Shown here in pieces: positions 3,659 to 60,132 of a stretch of DNA of 64,000 nt. The DNA is from Candidatus Woesebacteria bacterium GW2011_GWB1_33_22 (GTDB lineage: Bacteria; Patescibacteriota; Microgenomatia; UBA8517), in assembly GCA_000989765.1 (NCBI GenBank), contig LBOW01000002.1, positions 6,843 through 70,842 of the forward strand, written 5' to 3'. The position numbers were made by a program, and so were the translations under genes. The first letter of the stretch is position 1. The number at the start of each line of letters is the position of its first letter. The notes below the pieces were generated by a model. The model worked only from the letters and a program-made list of their open reading frames with translations, was not told the origin of the DNA and ran no database searches.

Positions 3659-3685
3659 AATTTATAAAGTATATCAAATTTGTTG

Positions 3686-3759
3686 TGGATCCAGCAGGGC
3701 TCGAACCTGCGACCTTACGGATGTAAACCGTACGCTCTAACCAACTGAGCTATGGATCC
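3686..3759 (-). tRNA. tRNA-Val(TAC)
   Basis: Reverse complement GGATCCATAGCTCAGTTGGTTAGAGCGTACGGTTTACATCCGTAAGGTCGCAGGTTCGAGCCCTGCTGGATCCA; anticodon loop TTTACAT. Confidence 0.85.
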
Positions 3760-3775
3760 AAATATAATATTTTAT

Positions 3776-3832
3776 TGTAAACGTACGCTCTACCTGCCGG
3801 CAGGCAGGTCTAACCAACTGAGCTAAATGTCC
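3776..3832 (-). pseudogene. truncated tRNA-Val-like 5' half (acceptor + D-arm + anticodon 5' stem) interrupted in the D-stem by the GC-rich palindromic element
   Basis: Reverse complement GGACATTTAGCTCAGTTGGTTAGA[CCTGCCTGCCGGCAGG]TAGAGCGTACGTTTACA matches the first ~35 nt of adjacent tRNA-Val; no 3' half. Confidence 0.5.
3793..3808. repeat. GC-rich palindromic element copy (16-nt version cctgccggcaggcagg) inside tRNA-Val remnant
   Basis: Same core as the 20-bp palindrome at 13924, 18472, 26403. Confidence 0.8.
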
Positions 3833-3847
3833 ATAATAACCTATAGT

Positions 3848-12226: not shown

Positions 12227-12245
12227 CCGACCTTCACTAAAGTTT

Positions 12246-12256
12246 CGGCAGGCAGG
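12246..12256. repeat. half-copy of GC-rich palindromic element (cggcaggcagg)
   Basis: Matches right arm of CCTGCCTGCCGGCAGGCAGG; lies in leader between tRNA-Ala and GIY-YIG gene. Confidence 0.5.
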
Positions 12257-12314
12257 CCATTACAAATTGTAGGTCGTCCTCCGTAGCCTCGGCGAAGGAG
12301 GAACTAAACAAAAT

Positions 12315-12551
12315 ATGTACTATGTATATTTACTTAAACTGAATAATCAAAAGATATATGTTGGATTTACTACAAATTTAGAACAAAGATTTAAAGAACA
12401 TATTTCTAGAAAAAGTCCGTACACGAAAAAATATTTACCTATAAAGTTAGTTTCTTACTTTTCCTTCAATAATAAGAAAACAGCATTAAAATTTGAAAAG
12501 TATCTCAAATCTGGATCTGGAATTGCTTTCAGAAATAAACATTTGGTTTAA
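12315..12551 (+). CDS. GIY-YIG nuclease superfamily protein (UPF0213-like)
   Basis: YYVYLLKLNNQKIYVGFTTNLEQRFKEH = GIY-(x10)-YIG/YVG core with Arg and Glu. Confidence 0.85.
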   Translation: MYYVYLLKLNNQKIYVGFTTNLEQRFKEHISRKSPYTKKYLPIKLVSYFSFNNKKTALKFEKYLKSGSGIAFRNKHLV

Positions 12552-12622: not shown

Positions 12623-14452
12623 ATGAATATCAGAAACGTTGCAATTATTGCCCATGTTGACCATGGAAAAACCACTTTAGTGGATGCTCTTTTGCGCCAA
12701 TCACATACTGAAATGGGTAAAAGTGATGCAGGACAAGAAGCTATTTTGGATTCAAACGAACTTGAACGAGAACGAGGAATTACAATTTTTTCCAAAAATG
12801 CTTCAGTAATGTACAAAGACACTAAAATAAACATCATCGATACTCCAGGACATGCAGACTTTGGTGGAGAAGTTGAACGTGTTCTTTCTATGGCAGACGG
12901 TGCCTTACTTTTAGTTGATGCTAAAGAAGGACCAATGCCACAAACCAGATTCGTCCTTCGCCATGCACTCAAAATGGGTTTAAAAATAATTGTTGTTGTA
13001 AATAAAATTGATAAAAAGGGAGTTCGTTCTGAGTGGGTTCAGGGAAAAACCTTTGACCTTTTTGTTGAACTAGGTGCTGATGAATCAACCGCATTTTTTC
13101 CAACAATTTATGCCAGCGGGAGAGATGGAGTAGCAGGTTATGAACCAGACCTTGTTAAAATGAAAGATATTACACCTATTTTTGAAGAAATTATTAAATA
13201 CATTCCCGCACCCTCAGGAGATCCTGAAAAACCACTTCAAATGCTTGTCAGTAACATTGGTAAAGATAATTACAAGGGAAGAATTGCTATTGGAAAAATA
13301 AAAAATGGGAAAATATTACTAACAGAAGATGTAATTCATATTAATAGAGAGGGAGTACAAAAAAGAGCAAAATTAACTTCAATTTTTACTTTTAAAGGTT
13401 TAACAAAACAAGAAGAAAAAGAAGCCTTTGCTGGTGATATTGTTTCTGTTACTGGAATTTCTGACGTAACAATTGGAGAAACAATTGCTAGTTTAGAAAA
13501 TCCAATAGCTCTTCCTTTAATTTCAATTGAGGAGCCAACAGTTAAAATGGTCTTTTTAGTTAACGACTCCCCATTTGGTGGACATGAAGGAGATTTTAAA
13601 ACAAGTAGTCAAATCCGAGCGCGACTCTATAAAGAACTTGAAACTGACGTTGCTTTAAAAGTTGAAGATAACTCAGACGGGACCTGGACTGTATCAGGTA
13701 GAGGAGAATTACACTTAGCAATTTTGATTGAAAGAATGAGAAGAGAAGGATATGAATTTTCAGTTTCAAGACCTCATGTTATCAATAAAACAATTGACGG
13801 CAAAATTCATACTCCGTATGAAAAAGTATATATTGATGTACCAGAAGAGTTTTCAGGGGTAGTTATTCAACATATGGGAATTAGACACGGCAAGATGGAT
13901 GATATGAGTATTAATGAGAATAGCCTGCCTGCCGGCAGGCAGGTTTCTTTGGAATTTACAGTATCTACAAAAGAACTTATAGGTTTCAGGGGTGAACTTA
14001 TTACAGATACCAAGGGAATGGGAATAATTAATACTGCTTTTTTTGACTATTTACCAGATGATGGCTTTGAAAGGGAAAGGGATAGGGGCTCAATGATAGC
14101 TTACGAAACAGGGGAAACAAGGTTATATGGTTTAGTTAATGTTCAAGATCAAGGTCAACTTTTTGTAAGCCCTGCAGTTAAAGTCTATAAAGGCCAGGTT
14201 GTAGGACAAAATTCAAGAAGTGGCGATATGGTAGTTAATGTTTGTAAAGAAAAACAATTAAGTAATATGAGAAGTAAAGGTGATGGATCAGCAGAACACT
14301 TTAATACACCTAAAGTTATGGGCTTAGATGATGCTTTGGAATATATTGATGACACAGAACTTGTAGAAGTAACTCCAAAATCAATTAGGATCAGAAAAGT
14401 AATCTTAGATGAAGTTGAAGCCCGTCGCAAAAAATCAATGGGGATTAAATAA
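12623..14452 (+). CDS. typA: translational GTPase TypA/BipA (contains in-frame palindromic-element insertion at 13924-13943)
   Basis: AIIAHVDHGKTTLVDALL G1 motif, DTPGHADF, NKIDK; 609 aa. Confidence 0.95.
   Translation: MNIRNVAIIAHVDHGKTTLVDALLRQSHTEMGKSDAGQEAILDSNELERERGITIFSKNASVMYKDTKINIIDTPGHADFGGEVERVLSMADGALLLVDAKEGPMPQTRFVLRHALKMGLKIIVVVNKIDKKGVRSEWVQGKTFDLFVELGADESTAFFPTIYASGRDGVAGYEPDLVKMKDITPIFEEIIKYIPAPSGDPEKPLQMLVSNIGKDNYKGRIAIGKIKNGKILLTEDVIHINREGVQKRAKLTSIFTFKGLTKQEEKEAFAGDIVSVTGISDVTIGETIASLENPIALPLISIEEPTVKMVFLVNDSPFGGHEGDFKTSSQIRARLYKELETDVALKVEDNSDGTWTVSGRGELHLAILIERMRREGYEFSVSRPHVINKTIDGKIHTPYEKVYIDVPEEFSGVVIQHMGIRHGKMDDMSINENSLPAGRQVSLEFTVSTKELIGFRGELITDTKGMGIINTAFFDYLPDDGFERERDRGSMIAYETGETRLYGLVNVQDQGQLFVSPAVKVYKGQVVGQNSRSGDMVVNVCKEKQLSNMRSKGDGSAEHFNTPKVMGLDDALEYIDDTELVEVTPKSIRIRKVILDEVEARRKKSMGIK
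13924..13943. repeat. GC-rich 20-bp perfect palindrome CCTGCCTGCCGGCAGGCAGG, in frame in typA (codes LPAGRQ)
   Basis: Perfect self-complementary 20-mer, ~75% GC in ~33% GC context. Confidence 0.9.
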
Positions 14453-17916: not shown

Positions 17917-18960
17917 ATGGGTGATAACCTCATAAATTTAAAAAACCAAGCTATTGCACAAATATCGGAGGTCAGAGATTTAACTGAACTTGAACAGATA
18001 AGAATTAATCTGTTCGGAAGAAATGGAAAATTTAACGCTATTTCAAAAGAAATTGCTAAAGTCGCAATTGAAGAAAAAAAGCAGTTTGGAATTACTTTAA
18101 ATGAAGTTAAAAATACTTTAGAAGAATTAATTCAAATCAAGAAAAATGATTTAACCAATTCAGCTCGTGTCTGGTTTGACCCGACAATGCCTGCTAAAAA
18201 AAATAAACTAGGTAAAATTCATTTTGTTTCCAGGGCAATTGATGAAATATCATCAGTTTTTGAAAAAATTGGTTTTAGTAGAGTTAGATATTCTGAAGTT
18301 GAATGGGATTATTTTGCCTTTACTGCTTTAAATTTTCCTGTAAATCACCCAGCAAGAGATGATTGGGAAACTTTTTTTGTAGATTTACCTGAATCAAAAA
18401 AATATGGGTCAATGCTTTTAACACCTCACACATCAAGTGGTCAAATAAGGGAAATGTTATCGAGGCAAGCCCTGCCTGCCGGCAGGCAGGCTCCTATTAG
18501 AATGATTAATATAGCTAAGTGTTATAGAAGACAAAGTGATATTAGCCATGTTCCCATGTTTCACCAATTCGAAGGATTAGTAGTTGATAGTAATATTAAT
18601 ATTACAAATTTAAAAGGAACACTTGATTACTTTGCCAAAAGCTTTTTTGGTAAAAACAGAGAAACAAGATTAAGACCTTATCATTTTCAATTTACTGAAC
18701 CGTCATTTGAAGTAGATATCTCCTGTAATGTCTGTGATGGACGAGGTTGTAAATTATGTAAAGAAGGCTGGCTTGAGATAGGTGGCGCAGGAATGGTCCA
18801 TCCTAATGTTTTAAGAAATTGTAAAATTGATCCTAATGTCTATTCAGGTTTCGCTTTTGGTTGGGGAGTTGAAAGAGTTGCCATGATGAAATCTGGGCTT
18901 TCTGTGCCTGATGTAAGACTTTTATATAGTTCAGACTTACGTGTTTTGTCACAATTATAA
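17917..18960 (+). CDS. pheS: phenylalanine-tRNA ligase alpha subunit (contains in-frame palindromic-element insertion at 18472-18491)
   Basis: Class II motifs, ...FQFTEPSFEVD..., GWGVERVAMM; 347 aa. Confidence 0.95.
   Translation: MGDNLINLKNQAIAQISEVRDLTELEQIRINLFGRNGKFNAISKEIAKVAIEEKKQFGITLNEVKNTLEELIQIKKNDLTNSARVWFDPTMPAKKNKLGKIHFVSRAIDEISSVFEKIGFSRVRYSEVEWDYFAFTALNFPVNHPARDDWETFFVDLPESKKYGSMLLTPHTSSGQIREMLSRQALPAGRQAPIRMINIAKCYRRQSDISHVPMFHQFEGLVVDSNINITNLKGTLDYFAKSFFGKNRETRLRPYHFQFTEPSFEVDISCNVCDGRGCKLCKEGWLEIGGAGMVHPNVLRNCKIDPNVYSGFAFGWGVERVAMMKSGLSVPDVRLLYSSDLRVLSQL
18472..18491. repeat. GC-rich 20-bp palindrome CCTGCCTGCCGGCAGGCAGG in frame in pheS (codes LPAGRQ)
   Basis: Identical to copies at 13924 and 26403. 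Confidence 0.9.
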
Positions 18961-25989: not shown

Positions 25990-27930
25990 ATGAACACAAA
26001 TAAGCTTCAATTAACTGACCCTGTGAATATTATCCCATTCGTTGGTCCAAGTTTTGAAAAAAAATTAAAAAAATTAGAAATTATTACAGTTTCTGATCTA
26101 TTACATCACATTCCAAACAGATACTTGGATTTTTCTAAATTTACAAAAATAAAAAATATTAAAATTGATGAAGTTGTTTCAATATTTGGAACAATGACTT
26201 TTATCAAAAATCAACCAACAAAGTCCGGAAAATTAATGCAACTAGGAACTTTAGAAGATGAAACAGGAACTATTAATATGGTTTGGTTTAACCAGTTTTA
26301 CCTGGCAAAGATGCTATTTCCAGGAACTAAACTAATTATTTCAGGAAAAGCTTCTTGGTTTAACCGAAAGTTAGCTTTTTTTTCACCTCAGTATGAAAAA
26401 ATCCTGCCTGCCGGCAGGCAGGGGATTAATACAGTTCATACAGGTAAAATTATCGGGGTTTACTCTCAGACCTCAGGAATTACCAATAAATGGCTTAAGG
26501 CAAGAATTAAATATGCACTGGATCGAATTAAGATTGAAGAGTTTTTAAATAATAAATTAGGTTTATTAAATTTTGAAGATGCAATCAAAAAAATTCATTT
26601 TCCTAAAACTTTTAAAGAAGCCGAAAAGGCAAAGGAACGGCTTGCTTTTAACGAATTTTACAATTTATTAATAACGGCAAAAGAGCGAAAAAGAAAATTA
26701 CTAAAAAAAAGAGGTGTGGCTCTAATTGTTGACCAATTAACTGTTAACAATTTTATTGATTCTTTGCCGTTTAAACTTACCGATTCGCAAAATAAAGTTA
26801 CAAAAGAAATACTTTCTGATTTAGAGAAAAATATTTCAATGAATAGACTTCTGCAAGGTGATGTAGGAAGTGGAAAAACTGTTGTGGCTACAGTAGGGGC
26901 TTTTGCAACATTTTTAAATGGCTACCAAACTATATTTTTAGCTCCAACTCAAATACTTGCAAACCAGCATTACCAAACATTAAATAGTCTTTTTAAAAAT
27001 TATAAAATTAGAATATCTCTAATTACTGGAAGTAGTATTAAAAAAGATGAAGGAATATCTGACATAATAATCGGAACGCATGCCTTACTTAATAGAAAGT
27101 TTGAAAAGATCGGTTTATTAATAATTGATGAACAACATAAATTTGGTGTTAAACAAATTAATTTTTTACAAAAGAAAAATCCTCATACATTGACAATGAC
27201 AGCAACTCCAATCCCTAGAACCATAGCACAAACTTTATTTTCGGACATGGATCTTTCAATTCTTGATGAAATACCAGAAAATAGGCCAAAAATTAAAACC
27301 TGGCTAGTTCCTAATGAGAAACGAAGTAAGGCCTATGACTGGATCTCTTCACAAATCACTAGTCACAAATCACAGTGCTTTATTATTTGTCCCTTAGTTG
27401 AAGAATCGGAATCAGAAACGCTAAAATCTGTCAAATCGGTCAAAAAAGAATTTGGTAATTTAAAGTTAAAATTTAAAAAATTAAAGTTAGGACTTCTGCA
27501 TGGAAAACTTAAAGAAAAAGATAAAAACAAAGTATTAGACGATTTTAAAAACCGAAAGATTGATATTTTAGTTTCAACACCAGTAGTTGAAGTTGGGATT
27601 GATGTGTCAAACGCAACGATTATGTTAATTGAGGCAGCTGACAGGTTTGGTCTAGCTCAACTTCATCAATTAAGAGGCCGTGTTGGACGCGGTAAATCCG
27701 AATCCTACTGCCTTTTATTTACTGAAAACGAATCGGAAAAGGCGACCCAAAGACTTACAGCATTAACGAAATTTTCTTCTGGTTTTGAACTTGCAGAGTT
27801 AGATCTTAAACTCCGTGGGGCAGGTGAAGTCTTAGGAACAAAACAGTCAGGTTTTGGTAACCTAAAAATTGCCGATTGGTCCGACACTAAACTAATCAAG
27901 CTTGCATCAGAAGCAGTGAACAATGTATAA
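25990..27930 (+). CDS. recG: ATP-dependent DNA helicase RecG (contains in-frame palindromic-element insertion at 26403-26422)
   Basis: Wedge domain, Walker A GDVGSGKT, DEQH box, helicase C motifs QLHQLRGRVGRG. Confidence 0.9.
   Translation: MNTNKLQLTDPVNIIPFVGPSFEKKLKKLEIITVSDLLHHIPNRYLDFSKFTKIKNIKIDEVVSIFGTMTFIKNQPTKSGKLMQLGTLEDETGTINMVWFNQFYLAKMLFPGTKLIISGKASWFNRKLAFFSPQYEKILPAGRQGINTVHTGKIIGVYSQTSGITNKWLKARIKYALDRIKIEEFLNNKLGLLNFEDAIKKIHFPKTFKEAEKAKERLAFNEFYNLLITAKERKRKLLKKRGVALIVDQLTVNNFIDSLPFKLTDSQNKVTKEILSDLEKNISMNRLLQGDVGSGKTVVATVGAFATFLNGYQTIFLAPTQILANQHYQTLNSLFKNYKIRISLITGSSIKKDEGISDIIIGTHALLNRKFEKIGLLIIDEQHKFGVKQINFLQKKNPHTLTMTATPIPRTIAQTLFSDMDLSILDEIPENRPKIKTWLVPNEKRSKAYDWISSQITSHKSQCFIICPLVEESESETLKSVKSVKKEFGNLKLKFKKLKLGLLHGKLKEKDKNKVLDDFKNRKIDILVSTPVVEVGIDVSNATIMLIEAADRFGLAQLHQLRGRVGRGKSESYCLLFTENESEKATQRLTALTKFSSGFELAELDLKLRGAGEVLGTKQSGFGNLKIADWSDTKLIKLASEAVNNV
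26403..26422. repeat. GC-rich 20-bp palindrome CCTGCCTGCCGGCAGGCAGG in frame in recG (codes LPAGRQ)
   Basis: Identical to copies at 13924 and 18472. Confidence 0.9.
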
Positions 27931-34123: not shown

Positions 34124-34969
34124 TTATTTTACAACACCACTTGCACTAAAGATACTATTTTCAAAAATCGGGGGAGCTACCTTATAAGTCTCATAGACTT
34201 CTATTTTTCTGTTAGCTCCTCCAAATGATCCAGAAGAAATAACTTTATTCCCTTGAGATGGAAGCAGTCCAAACCCTGTTACATCAATTCCAATTTTGTG
34301 GGCAACTGTAGTATTGTATAATATTCTAACATTGGCATATTTAAGATCTGAATTTGCCCCAAGGCTTGCCAAATTAACGTTAGTTTCAAATTCAAAATCT
34401 TCATTTTCAATTGTGCAATTTGAGTTGACAGAATCAAAACCATTTGATTCGGCTCTTGCAGAATTGGGGTCAAATACTGCTCTAGCAATTTGCAGGTTAG
34501 AAATATCACCATAATAAACAGTAAGCTCTATTGCAGGTGCAAATCCATCAACAGGAGTATCAGAATCTCCCCAACAGAAAGTAACCTGATTGCCATCAAA
34601 TTGTGAATCACCAACAACGCCTTGATGAGGAGCAAACCAAAATACGGCAATTTCCCCGGATTTTAAACTAACAGGATAAACGACACTTGTTTCTCCTTGT
34701 CCAAAACTTGAAACATTTGCTTCAAAATTTGCTCCACCTATTTCTGAAGGACCAGTAGAACCTAATATCAAGGCCCTCTCGATACCTGCCTCTGCCGCTG
34801 AAAAAGCACGTAAGGAATCTTCCTCTTTTGAAGAAAGTGAAAGATCAGTAACTGAACGAGACATGATATATAAAACGATAATCAAAACGACAGAAAGTGA
34901 AAGAAGAACTATTAAAACAGCTTGACCTGCTTGCCGGTAGGCAGGGCCCTCATTATTTCTTGACTTCAT
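34124..34969 (-). CDS. PilX-like pilus-associated protein (N-terminal TM + AFSAAEAGIERAL motif), carries variant palindromic element near 5' end
   Basis: PilX_N-like ...SLRAFSAAEAGIERAL...; element encodes PAYRQAGQ at residues 9-16. Confidence 0.55.
   Translation of the reverse strand: MKSRNNEGPAYRQAGQAVLIVLLSLSVVLIIVLYIMSRSVTDLSLSSKEEDSLRAFSAAEAGIERALILGSTGPSEIGGANFEANVSSFGQGETSVVYPVSLKSGEIAVFWFAPHQGVVGDSQFDGNQVTFCWGDSDTPVDGFAPAIELTVYYGDISNLQIARAVFDPNSARAESNGFDSVNSNCTIENEDFEFETNVNLASLGANSDLKYANVRILYNTTVAHKIGIDVTGFGLLPSQGNKVISSGSFGGANRKIEVYETYKVAPPIFENSIFSASGVVK
34926..34945. repeat. variant copy of GC-rich palindrome (CCTGCTTGCCGGTAGGCAGG; two C->T changes giving G.U-compatible positions)
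   Basis: 18/20 identity to CCTGCCTGCCGGCAGGCAGG; in frame in minus-strand CDS. Confidence 0.8.
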
Positions 34970-35230: not shown

Positions 35231-35530
35231 ATGATTAAGATTCCAAGTAAATTGCAAGGTATTTTATGGTCAGTGCCTCTCAATAAAATTGATCTTAAAG
35301 TTCATAAATCATATTTAACTCATCAAATACTTATGTTTGGTAGTTTTGATGATATTAAATGGCTTTTTAATGTGTATCCAAATAATGATATTAAAAGTAT
35401 CTTCATAGATAAACCTCAGAAAATATACACACCAGAGGGTTTTAATTTTGTTAAAAACTTCGTTCTCAATTTAAAAGACCAAAACATACCACCCAAAAAT
35501 TATGTCAATGTTATACACTCAAAATCTTAA
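35231..35530 (+). CDS. hypothetical protein, possible cognate partner (antitoxin-like) of downstream nucleotidyltransferase
   Basis: Overlaps downstream gene by 29 nt, suggesting co-translation; no motif. Confidence 0.35.
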   Translation: MIKIPSKLQGILWSVPLNKIDLKVHKSYLTHQILMFGSFDDIKWLFNVYPNNDIKSIFIDKPQKIYTPEGFNFVKNFVLNLKDQNIPPKNYVNVIHSKS

Positions 35531-36152
35531 TAAAAATCAGTTAATAATTTATGAAAAACTAAAGGCGTTTAATAGTGATTTTGTATTGGCTGGTGGTACA
35601 TCATTAATGCTTCAAATTAACCATCGCAAAAGTTACGATTTTGATTGTTTTTCAGAGAAACCTCTAAATAAATCTTTGCTTCGAAAAGTAAAAAAGGTGT
35701 TTGGTAATAGCATTCATATATTGATAGATAACAATAGTTTGTTGCTTTTTACAACACCACAGGGGGTTAAAGTAGATTTAGTTTATTATCCATATAAACC
35801 TTTACACCAAATAATAAAAAATGCACCTATTTCCTTGTTTGGTTTTAGGGATATAGCTTCAAACAAAGCTTATACTATTGGTAGGAGAGCTACTTGGAGA
35901 GATTATGTTGATTTATTTTGTTTATTAAAAAATAATACCGTTAAAATAGAAAATATTATTAAAGATGCTAAAAAAAGATTTGGGGGGGAATTTAGTGAAA
36001 AGTTATTTTTGGAACAACTAGTCTACTTTAATGACCTTGACATAGTCCCAATTGAGTTTATTAACCAAAGCTATGAACCATCAGAGATCAAACAGACACT
36101 TGAAATGATTACTCAACAATACACAAAAACTTCTTTATTTGCTATACTTTAA
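35502..36152 (+). CDS. nucleotidyltransferase, AbiEii/DUF1814-like
   Basis: FVLAGGTSLMLQINHRKSYDFDCF (GGT/S-AL...R.S.D.D) minimal NTase fold signature. Confidence 0.55.
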   Translation: MSMLYTQNLNKNQLIIYEKLKAFNSDFVLAGGTSLMLQINHRKSYDFDCFSEKPLNKSLLRKVKKVFGNSIHILIDNNSLLLFTTPQGVKVDLVYYPYKPLHQIIKNAPISLFGFRDIASNKAYTIGRRATWRDYVDLFCLLKNNTVKIENIIKDAKKRFGGEFSEKLFLEQLVYFNDLDIVPIEFINQSYEPSEIKQTLEMITQQYTKTSLFAIL

Positions 36153-36154
36153 GT

Positions 36155-36802
36155 ATGGCACGGGCTACTAAAATATTACTTTTCTTTTTATTTTCAATTT
36201 CAGTCTCAACCACAGCCTATTTGGCCTTTAGATATTATAAAGAAACCAGGATTCCACAAGAAAATCTTGAACTTAATTTAACTGGAACCATCAAAAAAGG
36301 TAAAGATATATCACCTCAAAAAGATTATTGTCCAAACGAACTCTACATTGTAACTAAAGATAAAACATACCAATTAAGAACCCCCGACAAAAGAAATGAA
36401 AAAGCCTCAATAGTTTATGCAAAATACCGTGATCTTGAAGTTTCTCTGAAAGCCAAATTTAATGATATTTTACCAAACAACGATCCAAGAAAGAAAAATT
36501 GTGCCTCCGATCAATTTATTTTAGTTGAAAAAATTAACAGTAACAATAAAACAACATCAGTTTTTAATTCATACTCCGGCAAAATTTCTTGCCTACCTTT
36601 ACTTAATGGAGAACAAGTAAATTCTTCAGACTGTGCCTTAGGATTAGCTACAAATGATGGAAAATATTATATTTTGGAAGATATTGCTGATGATTTTATA
36701 ACTCAAGGCAAGGAAATTAATTTAACAGGGGATTTATCAAATGAAAAAACAATTTCAAATTATAAAATTGACGGAGTCATAAGCGTGATTGAAGTGAAGT
36801 AA
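36155..36802 (+). CDS. secreted hypothetical protein
   Basis: N-terminal signal/TM MARATKILLFFLFSISVSTTAYLAF. Confidence 0.5.
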   Translation: MARATKILLFFLFSISVSTTAYLAFRYYKETRIPQENLELNLTGTIKKGKDISPQKDYCPNELYIVTKDKTYQLRTPDKRNEKASIVYAKYRDLEVSLKAKFNDILPNNDPRKKNCASDQFILVEKINSNNKTTSVFNSYSGKISCLPLLNGEQVNSSDCALGLATNDGKYYILEDIADDFITQGKEINLTGDLSNEKTISNYKIDGVISVIEVK

Positions 36803-36806
36803 AACA

Positions 36807-36975
36807 TGATATAATTTGAATATGACAAAAGTTCAAAAAATATACAAAAAATATTTATCAAATAAAAAAAAGAATTCTGCATTAGATTTTTTTAAATCTT
36901 TCATGCCTGAAATGATTTACAGAACAATGAAACTTGAGGGAGAACCGTCAACAAGACGAAGAATTTTATCTCTAT
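36807..36975 (+). repeat. direct repeat copy A (~135-165 bp) carrying extended -10 TGATATAAT and a 53-codon ORF
   Basis: Near-identical to 37664-37800 except a 24-bp segment absent from copy B. Confidence 0.7.
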
Positions 36976-36983
36976 TTACATAA
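36822..36983 (+). CDS. small ORF within repeat copy A (53 aa), immediately upstream of fic
   Basis: MTKVQKIYKKYLSNKKKNSALDFFKSFMPEMIYRTMKLEGEPSTRRRILSLFT; truncated to 28 aa in copy B. Confidence 0.3.
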   Translation: MTKVQKIYKKYLSNKKKNSALDFFKSFMPEMIYRTMKLEGEPSTRRRILSLFT

Positions 36984-36986
36984 ATA

Positions 36987-37625
36987 ATGGCAAAATACGG
37001 GTCAACATCTTTCAAAGATACAAACTTTGGAATTTTACCCCGAGAGAAATTAGTGAAACTAGAAGAAAAAGGGGTTAAAAAGGGACTAGATTATATATCT
37101 TCACTTAATCAAAACGTAATTAAAACAACAGATATTGATATTCCACTGATTCTTAAACTTCACAAAATTTCATATGCTTGGATTTTCCCAAAGTGGGCAG
37201 GTAAATTTAGAACTATCGATGTGGCATATTCAGGCAAAGAAGCAATTGAATATTTTAAAGTAAGAGAAGCGATTACTAATTTATGTTTAGATCTAAAAGT
37301 AAGAATGAACCACCTTTCTTCAAAAAATAACAGTAAATACATAACAAATGTTATTGAACTTGTATCATGGTTTCAACACAGATTCGTTCAAATACATCCA
37401 TTTAATGACTATAACGGTAGAACAGCAAGAATGTTAACTTCATTTTTACTATTAAAATTTGATTTACCTGCAATTGAAATAAAAGCAGATAACAAAAGTG
37501 ATAGAAAAAAGTATATACGAGCCATGCAGGAGGCAGATGAGGGGAATTATTCGAATTTGGAAAAACTTATTGCATCTGCATTAGAAGAAGGTTTACAAAA
37601 ATTTGACTTAAAGCTAAAAACTTGA
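36987..37625 (+). CDS. Fic/Doc family protein
   Basis: Fic motif HPFNDYNGRTARM (HPFx[DE]GNGR). Confidence 0.9.
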   Translation: MAKYGSTSFKDTNFGILPREKLVKLEEKGVKKGLDYISSLNQNVIKTTDIDIPLILKLHKISYAWIFPKWAGKFRTIDVAYSGKEAIEYFKVREAITNLCLDLKVRMNHLSSKNNSKYITNVIELVSWFQHRFVQIHPFNDYNGRTARMLTSFLLLKFDLPAIEIKADNKSDRKKYIRAMQEADEGNYSNLEKLIASALEEGLQKFDLKLKT

Positions 37626-37630
37626 AATAA

Positions 37631-37656
37631 ACCTCCCCACAAAGGAGGTTTTTTCT
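37631..37656 (+). terminator. rho-independent terminator ACCTCC-ccacaaa-GGAGGT + T6
   Basis: 6-bp GC-rich stem followed by TTTTTTCTT directly after fic stop. Confidence 0.65.
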
Positions 37657-37663
37657 TAAACTG

Positions 37664-37800
37664 TGATATAATTTAAATATGACAAAAGTTCAAAAAATAT
37701 ACAAAAAATATTTATCAAACAAAAAAAAGAATTCTGCATTAGATTTACAGAACAATGAAACTTGAGAGGGAACAAATAACAAGAAGGCAAGTTTTATCGA
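37664..37800 (+). repeat. direct repeat copy B (promoter TGATATAAT + truncated small ORF) upstream of NYN gene
   Basis: See copy A. Confidence 0.7.
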
Positions 37801-37817
37801 TATTTTAAACAAACTGA

Positions 37818-38348
37818 ATGAAAAAAGGAGCAACACCCCATAAAAACTCCATAACATACGCCTTTATAGACGCCTCAAATATAATTTACGGAACTCGCGA
37901 CGAGGGTTGGAAAGTAGATTTTAAAAAACTCTATAAATACCTTTCTGAAAGATATAATTGTAAAAAAATTTATTATTTTGCAGGATTAGACTCAAAGAAC
38001 ATAAAACAAATTAATTTCTATAAACTCCTATCAAAAATTGGTTATGAATTAATACTAAAACCTGTAAAAATCTATTTACAGCCTGACGGATCAAAAGTAA
38101 GAAAAGCAAACTGCGATGTTGATTTAACTTTTTATGCCATGAGGGACAAAGAACTTTTTAATAAATGTATATTTCTAACAGGAGACGGTGATTTTCTCAT
38201 ACTCTTAAACTATTTTATTGAACTAAATAAAGAAGTTGTAGTTATTGCAAACAGTAGAAGAACCGCTAAGGAAATTAAAACAATTAAGAAGGTTCAATTT
38301 AATAATCTAAGTGTACTAAAAGAAACTATAAAATTTGCAAAAAAATAA
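37818..38348 (+). CDS. NYN-domain (LabA/YacP-like) putative RNase
   Basis: FIDASNIIYG..., CDVDLTFYAM, LTGDGDF acidic motifs of NYN fold. Confidence 0.8.
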   Translation: MKKGATPHKNSITYAFIDASNIIYGTRDEGWKVDFKKLYKYLSERYNCKKIYYFAGLDSKNIKQINFYKLLSKIGYELILKPVKIYLQPDGSKVRKANCDVDLTFYAMRDKELFNKCIFLTGDGDFLILLNYFIELNKEVVVIANSRRTAKEIKTIKKVQFNNLSVLKETIKFAKK

Positions 38349-59055: not shown

Positions 59056-59301
59056 TTTAAGGTTTAGTATCACCTTCAAGAAGTTTTTGTAAACGTTCAA
59101 TATGTTCTTCCATTTGACCTATTAGTTCAAATTCTTCAATTTTTTCTCTAATTATTTGTTCTAAACTTCGATGGGTCGTTTTTTGAATACTTAAAATTCC
59201 CTCGATTATTATGTCATCCGCCCCTCTTTTTTAAGGTCTTTTTCATTCATTAAATATTATTTTAATATCATTTTTTCATATTGCTAATTTTGTAACGAAA
59301 T

Positions 59302-59323
59302 AACAAGGTTGGTCCTTGTGATT
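59302..59323. repeat. REP-like palindrome (aacaaggttggtccttgtgatt), inverted orientation relative to downstream copies
   Basis: Reverse complement aatcacaaggaccaaccttgtt matches units at 59974-60050. Confidence 0.65.
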
Positions 59324-59340
59324 TTATGATATCATGAAAT

Positions 59341-59976
59341 ATGCCCGCCAGAAATATATTAAAACAATACCTTTCTGACTCAATTTATCATATTTATAAT
59401 CGAGGAGTAGAAAAACGAATTATCTTTATAGATAATCAAGACTATAAAGTTTTCCTATCTTACATAGAAGAGTATTTAACACCATTACAACAAGGATCAA
59501 CCTTGTTGTATCGAGAACTGACTGGAAAATATTATGGAGAAATAATTCTTTTAGCCTTTTGTTTAATGCCAAATCACTTCCATTTACTTATTAAGCAAAA
59601 GGATAAAGATTCAATCAAAAGGTTTTCAAAATCATTATTTACAAGATATAGCATGTACTTTAATAAAAAATATAAAAGGGTTGGACCACTTTTCCAAAGT
59701 ATTTACAAAGCTACAAATGTAATAGATAAAGAACATTTATTATATATTTCAAAATATATTCATTTAAATCCGTCAGAAAAAGCAAATAAATTAATTGATG
59801 CTTATTCTTCATATTCAGACTATTTGGGAATCACCAATACACAATGGTTAAATAAATTTATTGTATTAACAGAATTTAATAAAAGCTCATATATGAAGTA
59901 CCACAAAATAAAAACATACAAGCAATTCGTTGAGGAGTATAAGGAAGACCTTCCACAATACACGCTGGGCGAATAA
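59341..59976 (+). mobile_element. REP-associated tyrosine transposase (RAYT) / IS200-like Y1 transposase
   Basis: IYHIYNRGVEK..., HUH motif MPNHFHLLI, catalytic Tyr region FTRYSMYFNKKY / YIHLNP; flanked by REP-like palindromes. Confidence 0.8.
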
Positions 59977-60050
59977 TCACAAGAACCACAAGGACCAACC
60001 TTGTGATTAACTTGTGATTAAAGAACCACAAGGACCAACCTTGTGATTAA
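59974..60050. repeat. two tandem REP-like palindromic units (AGAACCACAAGGACCAACCTTGTGATTAA) downstream of RAYT
   Basis: Unit contains nested inverted repeats CACAAGG-ACCAA-CCTTGTG; second partial unit CTTGTGATTAA between copies. Confidence 0.75.
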
Positions 60051-60105
60051 TAAACAATTTGTAGAAGAATATAAAGCAGACATGCCCCAATATGAACCAG
60101 ATATG

Positions 60106-60132
60106 TGAGGGTTCAACCCTCACATTTTTTCC
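60106..60132 (+). terminator. rho-independent terminator TGTGAGGG-ttcaa-CCCTCACA + T6
   Basis: 8-bp perfect stem followed by TTTTTT. Confidence 0.7.

Follow-up and report, generated by a model that had tools for sequence, protein, structure and literature searches.

The 64,000-nucleotide stretch analyzed here, taken from contig LBOW01000002.1 of Candidatus Woesebacteria bacterium GW2011_GWB1_33_22 (hereafter the window, to which all coordinates refer unless another locus is named), carries the conserved genes typA, pheS, recG and dinB, a pilin-like open reading frame (ORF) that adjoins pilM, and tRNA genes. Several of these are interrupted by copies of one 20-nucleotide (nt) palindrome, CCTGCCTGCCGGCAGGCAGG, which we named PAL. 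Three exact copies and two copies with two mismatches were found in the window, and no PAL matches were obtained in 100 dinucleotide-preserving shuffles of it. The five copies are located as follows:

13924..13943: exact copy in typA, read as LPAGRQ; relatives at 90-92% identity are without PAL
18471..18490: exact copy in pheS, giving the seven-residue insert ALPAGRQ
26403..26422: exact copy in recG, read as LPAGRQ
34926..34945: two-mismatch copy in codons 9-15 of the minus-strand pilin-like ORF of 281 amino acids (aa), read as PAYRQAG
3789..3808: two-mismatch copy in the D-loop of an orphan 5' tRNA-Val fragment (about 3760-3845, minus strand)

The GC content of PAL is 80%, compared to 28-38% for the window, and PAL is the sole long GC-rich perfect palindrome there. 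It is free of stop codons in all frames on both strands, with the three readings PACRQAG, LPAGRQ and CLPAGR, and its single DNA strand adopts a stem of 8 bp with CCGG in the loop (-8 kcal/mol). Alignment of the 100-nt flanks of the five copies revealed no conservation outside the 20-mer, which rules out a larger element extending past it. The orphan tRNA-Val fragment lies directly upstream of the real tRNA-Val(tac) gene at 3685-3759 and is 20 nt longer at the site of PAL than the real gene. An Rfam scan of the window returned tRNAs only, and a Pfam search of the 281-aa pilin-like ORF gave no match.

A preliminary description, made by a model from the letters of this DNA, had reported the palindrome in typA, pheS and recG, the two-mismatch variant in the pilin-like ORF at 34926-34945 and the absence of stop codons, all of which were recovered. 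Its position for the pheS copy (18472-18491) was off by one, and its GC value of 75% was too low. The copy that it described as 16 nt long at 3793-3808 does lie in a partial tRNA-Val, where it spans 3789-3808 with two mismatches. A half-copy reported in the leader at 12246-12256 corresponds to GGCAGGCAGG (12247..12256, plus strand); this sequence can be aligned with a leader hairpin that is conserved in the GIY-YIG nuclease cassettes described below and is probably part of it, and its interpretation as a PAL remnant is disfavored.

Insertion of PAL into conserved genes

Comparisons with homologous proteins revealed that the PAL-encoded residues are additions. PheS contained exactly seven extra residues relative to the protein in PDB entry 4p71, and of the 120 closest homologues approximately 110 were without the insert and read NK-P-PIRM there. 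At the junction in pheS, PAL lies between the two C's of a proline codon and is accompanied by one extra base. Relatives of TypA at 90-92% identity (P0132, P0133, and P0134) read YKNEEGI-VSLEF where the window reads SINENS-LPAGRQ-VSLEF, and most relatives of RecG read YEKI-DENHE-TVHTG instead of YEKI-LPAGRQGIN-TVHTG. The gain of about seven residues per copy suggested initially was thus confirmed for PheS only, the gains in TypA and RecG being five and four residues, respectively.

The sister genome GWA1_33_30 (locus L247) is syntenic with the window, and its TypA is 92% identical. In this genome typA and pheS are without PAL and RecG (P0254) is empty, and dinB contains two PAL copies where the window dinB contains none. 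None of the five filled sites compared (typA, pheS, recG, and two in dinB) was common to both genomes, and the turnover of PAL is therefore recent.

One explanation takes the LPAGRQ segments for loops of ancestral origin, or the 20-mer for an artefact of adapters or assembly; the varying loop lengths of distant homologues are the one observation in its favor. The nearest homologues, however, are without the segment, and the nucleotide sequence is identical at 20/20 positions across unrelated genes, with both flanks of each copy being contiguous gene sequence. Degenerate descendants of the PAL peptide (LSAGRQ, LPAGGQ, and SLPNGVQA) occur among the homologues, and PAL was recovered in independent studies as well as in cultured isolates. 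We regard this explanation as hardly credible. On sequence comparison, PAL is a derived and recently active insertion in conserved genes and not an ancestral loop. The preliminary description had read it as such an insert and had proposed alignment with orthologues as a check, and the nearest orthologues of TypA, PheS and RecG are indeed empty. It had also named an ancestral loop as a contrary outcome, which the empty homologues contradict.

The inserted unit, frame restoration and target sites

The exact extent of the insert could be read from the viral contig L141, which contained two hairpin repeat families, each with empty and PAL-filled members:

L141 family 1: empty, ...CGGTTTTTG / CAAGGGTGGG (3 copies); filled, ...CGGTTTTTG - PAL - CGAGGGTGGG
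L141 family 2: empty, GCCCCGTAG / GGGCGACAC (3 copies); filled, CCCGTAG - PAL - GGGCGGCAC (2 copies)

In both families the filled and empty members differed by exactly the 20-mer, and no target sequence was duplicated. A scan for target duplications of k = 1-8 nt yielded an apparent excess at k = 1 (44 vs. 26) and at k = 7 (4 vs. 0.04); the first reflects a preference for C|C and G|G steps, and the second is due to tandem repeats of heptamers that were present beforehand. Target-site duplication was ruled out by the exact 20-bp insert in the filled and empty family members.

A unit of 20 bp that inserts without duplication shifts the reading frame, and in-frame insertion, as claimed in the preliminary description, is therefore not an intrinsic property of the element. 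Instead, the frame was restored by second-site indels (+1, -5, or -8) beside every in-gene copy, with the following net changes:

PheS: +21 nt
TypA: +15 nt (20 - 5)
RecG: +12 nt (20 - 8)
dinB site 1 (sister genome): +21 nt
dinB site 2 (sister genome): +15 nt

The clearest case of compensation is dinB site 2, where a clean 20-nt PAL insert is followed 17 nt downstream by a separate 5-nt deletion (GAGGA), with a shifted frame between the two, and where the sister genome reads D-LPAGRQ-AALNQKM vs. DSFRSKRGM in the window. Such rescue is possible because PAL has no stop codon in any frame. The copies examined in typA, pheS, recG and dinB all read LPAGRQ, and the copy in the pilin-like ORF follows the PACRQAG frame with its Cys codon mutated to Tyr.

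The insertion sites were not distributed evenly. PAL interrupted a C|C or G|G step in 27% of cases and an A|T step in 26%. PAL occupied hairpin loops with arms of at least 6 at 10.4% of the sites compared to 3.7% of control positions, and with arms of at least 8 at 2.5% compared to 0.3% of the controls. Approximately 7% of the sites were in tRNA-like DNA, where PAL lay in the D-loop, the anticodon stem-loop junction or the variable loop, and at least six copies were nested inside other PAL-like copies (L018, L042, L021, L028, L143, and L125/L147). When PAL was excised in silico and ARAGORN was rerun, only two loci yielded an intact tRNA, namely L145, where PAL sits in the variable loop of a phage tRNA-Met, and L030; most tRNA-like hosts are therefore orphan fragments.

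Several further arrangements were seen around these sites. In phage contigs L145 (2240-2330) and L122 (8576-8650) PAL is situated in the variable loop of a tRNA-Met(CAT); the tRNA of L145 is otherwise intact, PAL would provide it with a long extra arm, and it may still function. Tandem repeats of about 7-8 nt (AATTACG, TCTAAAA, GAGTGAT) surround PAL in Bacteroidota and in some loci of the candidate phyla radiation (CPR), and these loci (L002, L005, L050, L058, L065, L082, L101, and L115) give rise to false 7-nt "duplications". At the end of viral contig L154 (3925-4142) a 21-nt PAL-like unit, CCATGCCTACCGGCAGGCAGG, is present in at least ten tandem copies, with two more PAL-like variants at about 3501 and 3771. 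In L148 (430-490), compared to L141 (1194-1240), the family flank is inverted across PAL to form a near-perfect palindrome of about 38 nt, which is the expected product of fold-back priming at PAL after a break; L079 and L113 are alike. Another GC-rich perfect palindrome, TCCGCCGCGGCGGA, is found at the loop position of the same L141 hairpin family:

L141, 1146-1193: loop with TCCGCCGCGGCGGA
L141, 2990-3037: loop with TCCGCCGCGGCGGA
L141, 8899-8946: loop with TCCGCCGCGGCGGA
L141, 10502-10549: loop with TCCGCCGCGGCGGA

A different GC-rich palindrome is located in a tRNA D-loop in L039 (871-915), at the position taken by PAL elsewhere. PAL may be one of several such elements.

Distribution and proposed mobilization of PAL

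GTDB contigs from one genome per species (596 Gb) were scanned for the exact 20-mer. Among the matches listed, at least 120 genome stretches contained the identical sequence; they represent more than 10 phyla, and approximately 0.5 occurrences are expected by chance (596e9 / 4^20, uniform composition). The hosts include many lineages of Patescibacteria as well as Omnitrophota, Bacteroidota, Planctomycetota, Verrucomicrobia, Elusimicrobia, Ignavibacteria, Nitrospirota, Thermodesulfobacteriota, Bdellovibrionales and others, and the GC content of the PAL-bearing stretches ranges from 0.30 to 0.72. Outside CPR genes the copies are mostly intergenic. PAL was also found in seven isolates of Bacteroidota that are in culture (Winogradskyella, Flagellimonas, Longitalea, Flavivirga, Aquiflexum, Agriterribacter, and Aestuariivivens); Winogradskyella echinorum KCTC 22026, Flagellimonas yonaguniensis, Aquiflexum lacus and Longitalea luteola are among the carriers. 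In IMG/VR it was detected in 35 viral stretches, with six copies on a single 29.5-kb contig, and a blastn search of cultured phages and plasmids with a 30-nt query retrieved no full exact copy. The preliminary description had missed this scale. Since PAL turns over quickly within lineages and is common to different phyla and phage contigs, it has spread horizontally. The literature searched yielded no relevant paper for the 20-mer, its sub-strings or the peptide LPAGRQ. PAL is apparently an undescribed mobile palindrome, and it looks like a very small piece of horizontally spreading selfish DNA. The occurrence of an identical 20-mer in more than 10 phyla and in phages implies either a vector of very broad host range or a conserved enzyme with a fixed DNA specificity, and either would be new.

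Two genes in the window encode enzymes that were considered as mobilizers. One belongs to the Y1 transposases related to the REP-associated tyrosine transposases (RAYTs) of repetitive extragenic palindromes (REPs):

59341..59976, plus strand: IS200-like Y1 (RAYT-like) gene (PF01797, E = 3.6e-9), with its own inverted REP hairpins on the flanks

According to this explanation PAL is a REP-type element moved by a Y1 (HUH) RAYT/IS200-like transposase through single-strand "peel and paste", a process that is also precise, duplication-free and hairpin-using. PAL is itself a hairpin element with a preference for hairpin DNA and without target duplication, and a suitable protein is encoded in the window. 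However, this gene is flanked by hairpins other than PAL, CACAAGGACCAACCTTGTG at approximately 59304, 59987 and 60027. In approximately 170 PAL loci we detected no Y1 gene bordered by PAL; RAYT-like ORFs were present in L007 alone, more than 0.8 kb from PAL and not flanking it. Across 171 sites the flanking 4-mers enriched beside PAL (CGGA, TACG, CCGA, CTGC, GAGG, and TAGA) each occurred at no more than eight sites, the best flanking 2-mer was GA (41/171), and there was neither a fixed target motif of 4-5 nt nor a GTAG/CGTC tag. REP families are normally lineage-specific, and identity across phyla is unlike them. We therefore consider movement by a Y1 transposase unlikely, and the RAYT of the window was rejected as the cognate enzyme, its flanks being another REP and no such gene being adjacent to PAL in the other loci examined. 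The Y1 region (59300-60130) also contains a related hairpin in frame within the ORF (59486-59510, read LQQGSTLLY) and, at 60060-60125, a remnant of the 3' end of a second Y1 gene copy, followed by a different hairpin.

The second candidate is a small nuclease gene, and relatives of it form cassettes with tRNA genes at other PAL loci:

12315..12551, plus strand: 78-aa free-standing GIY-YIG ORF just after tRNA-Ala (PF01541, E = 9.5e-15), candidate break-maker or mobilizer
L037, 2108-2480: GIY-YIG-tRNA cassette
L152, 495-860: GIY-YIG-tRNA cassette
L106, 3678-4060: GIY-YIG-tRNA cassette
L118, 5830-6190, minus strand: GIY-YIG-tRNA cassette
L077, 2700-3090, minus strand: GIY-YIG-tRNA cassette
L074, 2300-2560, minus strand: GIY-YIG-tRNA cassette

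In L037, L152, L106 and L118 an orphan 5' tRNA fragment with PAL is followed by a small GIY-YIG ORF and then by an intact copy of the same tRNA. L077 is arranged in this way too, a 19/20 PAL taking the place of 19 nt of the fragment; it lies 2.6 kb from the copy used to find the locus, and this cassette was not ascertained through its own PAL copy. Window 3760-3845 shows the layout without the ORF. Given this adjacency, we consider the small GIY-YIG nuclease the best candidate for an enzyme that would make the breaks at which PAL inserts.

The cassettes have features of their own. They occur in several phyla and on one phage contig, the intact tRNA starts 0-5 nt after the stop codon, and the ORF seems to have been inserted with duplication of 25-45 nt of the tRNA 5' end. 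Among 80 metagenomic homologues of the window gene (L165-L244), 41 lie just downstream of a same-strand tRNA, mostly tRNA-Ser; a scan of viral contigs for relatives returned distant phage nucleases only. GC-rich leader hairpins are shared between cassettes (CGGCGGAC-AAA-GTCCGCC / GGCAGGC-AAG-GCCTGC, aligned to window 12247-12256), and the homologues have in common a structured leader of GCTCGC-CGAA-GCGAGC, then GGCGGAC-AAA-GTCCGCC, then GAAGGAG. The window cassette (12229-12551) thus resembles a mobile cassette that targets tRNA genes and has conserved its leader, for which Rfam gave no match. A further GIY-YIG ORF, of homing-endonuclease type and with no adjacent PAL, is located within the 23S rRNA gene of a Saccharibacteria metagenome-assembled genome (L093, 4700-5260, minus strand).

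We find it probable that PAL is a minimal non-autonomous mobile DNA, characterized by an exact unit, hairpin targets, frame compensation, horizontal spread and a nuclease provided in trans. Copying or movement would involve precisely these 20 bp, with no duplication at the target, and landing would be favored on hairpin-forming DNA such as stem-loops, tRNA-like sequence and other PAL copies. A copy landing in a gene would survive only with a nearby frame-restoring indel of 3k+1 bases, and the surviving copies examined are read as LPAGRQ, the frame without Cys, and are found where homologues likewise vary in length. Turnover would be quick within lineages, with horizontal spread across phyla and phage contigs. 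Insertion would probably occur where a structure-specific nuclease, acting in trans, has broken the DNA, and the small free-standing GIY-YIG family, whose cassettes appear to target tRNA genes and whose orphan fragments repeatedly carry PAL, is the leading candidate. The insertion behavior itself is evident from the filled and empty sites; the mobilizing mechanism we infer.

A number of observations weigh against this reading. Donor, intermediate and enzyme we infer throughout. The RecG strain variants examined (approximately 99-100% identical) were all filled, and the 90% clusters of TypA and PheS contained no insert-free variant. Thus, of the presence/absence polymorphism that the preliminary description had suggested looking for, the difference between sister genomes was found, and no filled/empty pair within one population was seen in the strain-level clusters of TypA, PheS and RecG. 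The same PheS position is filled by PAL in five lineages, among which PAL is 98% identical, compared to 73% for the right flank and 46% for its third codon positions, which puts the flanks near saturation; this conservation fits selection on DNA at least as well as recurrent insertion. Same-site copies of TypA and RecG also occur in lineages interleaved with empty ones, and in RecG the filled allele shared by such lineages includes the compensating deletion, an indication that the allele was transferred by recombination and that PAL did not insert there afresh. Repeated targeting, recombinational transfer of alleles, or selection on DNA could account for the same-site patterns of the three genes. 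With respect to the nuclease, PAL was found within 200 nt upstream of the gene in 0/80 homologues of the window GIY-YIG gene, and the cassette of L074 is of the orphan-tRNA type without PAL. The link between the two could be a shared liking for tRNA DNA combined with the neutrality of orphan fragments. PAL as a fixed part of GIY-YIG cassettes was ruled out by the 0/80 result.

The strong conservation of PAL relative to the flanking synonymous PheS sites would also be expected if PAL were a hairpin useful to its host (for RNA stabilization or processing, as a terminator, or as a protein site) that is maintained by selection, with the in-gene copies as by-products. The stable fold of the element is consistent with this, as is its location in leaders 5' of GIY-YIG ORFs, a place occupied by GC-rich hairpins in other cassettes. 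On the other hand, its position relative to genes is inconsistent, T-runs are not a feature of its flanks, the sister genomes share no sites, and essential ORFs are disrupted and require compensation. We consider a host function very improbable as the explanation.

The varying junction repairs (+1, -5, and -8) resemble imprecise repair and suggest another possibility, that PAL has no dedicated enzyme and is taken up as filler at hairpin breaks or stalled forks, or is copied there by template switching, and is subsequently spread among relatives by homologous recombination, possibly with an added bias such as an uptake or recombination signal. The empty PheS site (TGCCT / CCTCC) resembles a PAL arm, the filled RecG allele is patchy among relatives, the inverted flank around PAL in L148 is what fold-back priming gives, and the yeast GC cluster GC42 has been exchanged between species by recombination (PMC4478555). 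Non-coding insertions, however, are exact to the base, unlike filler capture; recombination is unable to carry PAL between phyla, and a specific source or specific recognition is required to explain an identical 20-mer in phages and in more than 10 phyla. We consequently hold this possibility to be doubtful.

With PAL, essential proteins acquire loops in two steps, a frameshifting insert and then an indel that compensates for it, and the presence of PAL in tRNA-like DNA and in marker genes (pheS, typA, and recG) could disturb gene calling as well as CPR and Bacteroidota alignments. In its boldest form, which we put forward tentatively, PAL would be the smallest transposable unit yet described (20 bp, non-coding, and duplication-free), moved in trans by a structure-specific nuclease, most likely the tRNA-targeting mini GIY-YIG, exchanged between phyla via phages or other vectors, and remodeling essential proteins and tRNA genes by frameshift and compensation.

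Two other regions of the window were noted. ORFs for an AbiEii-like nucleotidyltransferase, a Fic/DOC protein and an NYN-domain protein (35502-38348) form what looks like a toxin-antitoxin or defence islet, and an ORF of the PD-(D/E)XK nuclease family (PF12705) is located at 649-1407.

Comparison with known short mobile elements

Judged by the loci compared here, PAL lacks a defining feature of each kind of known element considered, be it size, host, tag, target duplication or a flanked transposase. REP and REPIN elements are extragenic and imperfect, carry a GTAG/CGTC tag and flank their RAYT gene (PMC3733652). PAL is similar to the REP/RAYT system in being a GC-rich hairpin repeat in the range of 20-40 bp, and REPs are likewise thought to move single-stranded without target duplication. 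Unlike REPs, PAL is perfect, untagged and pan-phylum, flanks no Y1 gene in the loci examined, and is present within genes (typA, pheS, recG, dinB, and the pilin-like ORF). The IS200/IS605 insertion sequences (IS) share with PAL the precise insertion without duplication and the dependence on hairpins; they need distinct left and right ends and a fixed 5' target of 4-5 nt, whereas PAL has neither (no flanking 4-mer at more than 8/171 sites). Miniature inverted-repeat transposable elements are characterized by a target-site duplication, which PAL does not produce, and by a parent IS with the same terminal repeats; in 1.65 Mb of PAL loci, searched for CCTGCCTGCC...GGCAGGCAGG pairs 10-4000 nt apart, no such coherent parent element was detected.

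The Rickettsia palindromic elements (RPEs) are approximately 100-150 bp long, are confined to Rickettsia and encode a conserved peptide (PMC10969869). Both RPEs and PAL are palindromic repeats inside essential ORFs, and the predicted reading of PAL is likewise an extra peptide; at the level of sequence the ORFs stay open through PAL only thanks to the compensating indels. PAL differs in its length of 20 bp, in its hosts (Woesebacteria, which belong to the CPR, and more than 10 other phyla), and in being frameshifting and in need of compensation. The two have no sequence relation, in agreement with the remark in the preliminary description that the element was far shorter than RPEs and apparently unrelated to them.

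The GC clusters of yeast and of other fungal and algal organelles are approximately 30-50 nt long with a putative AG target duplication, and their mobilizer acts by no established mechanism, endonucleases being suspected (PMC4478555). They differ from PAL in being organellar and longer and in the AG duplication; PAL is found in bacteria and phages, is 20 bp long, duplicates no target, and retains one sequence across phyla. In common with PAL, the mitochondrial clusters are short GC-rich palindromes in AT-rich genomes, are present or absent in a patchy manner between close relatives, show nesting or merger of copies and transfer between species, and are also inserted in protein genes, as in the case of var1. 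The cultured Bacteroidota that carry PAL make it a tractable model in which insertion could be studied by experiment. Of the systems compared, the mitochondrial GC clusters offer what appears to be the closest working analogue of PAL.

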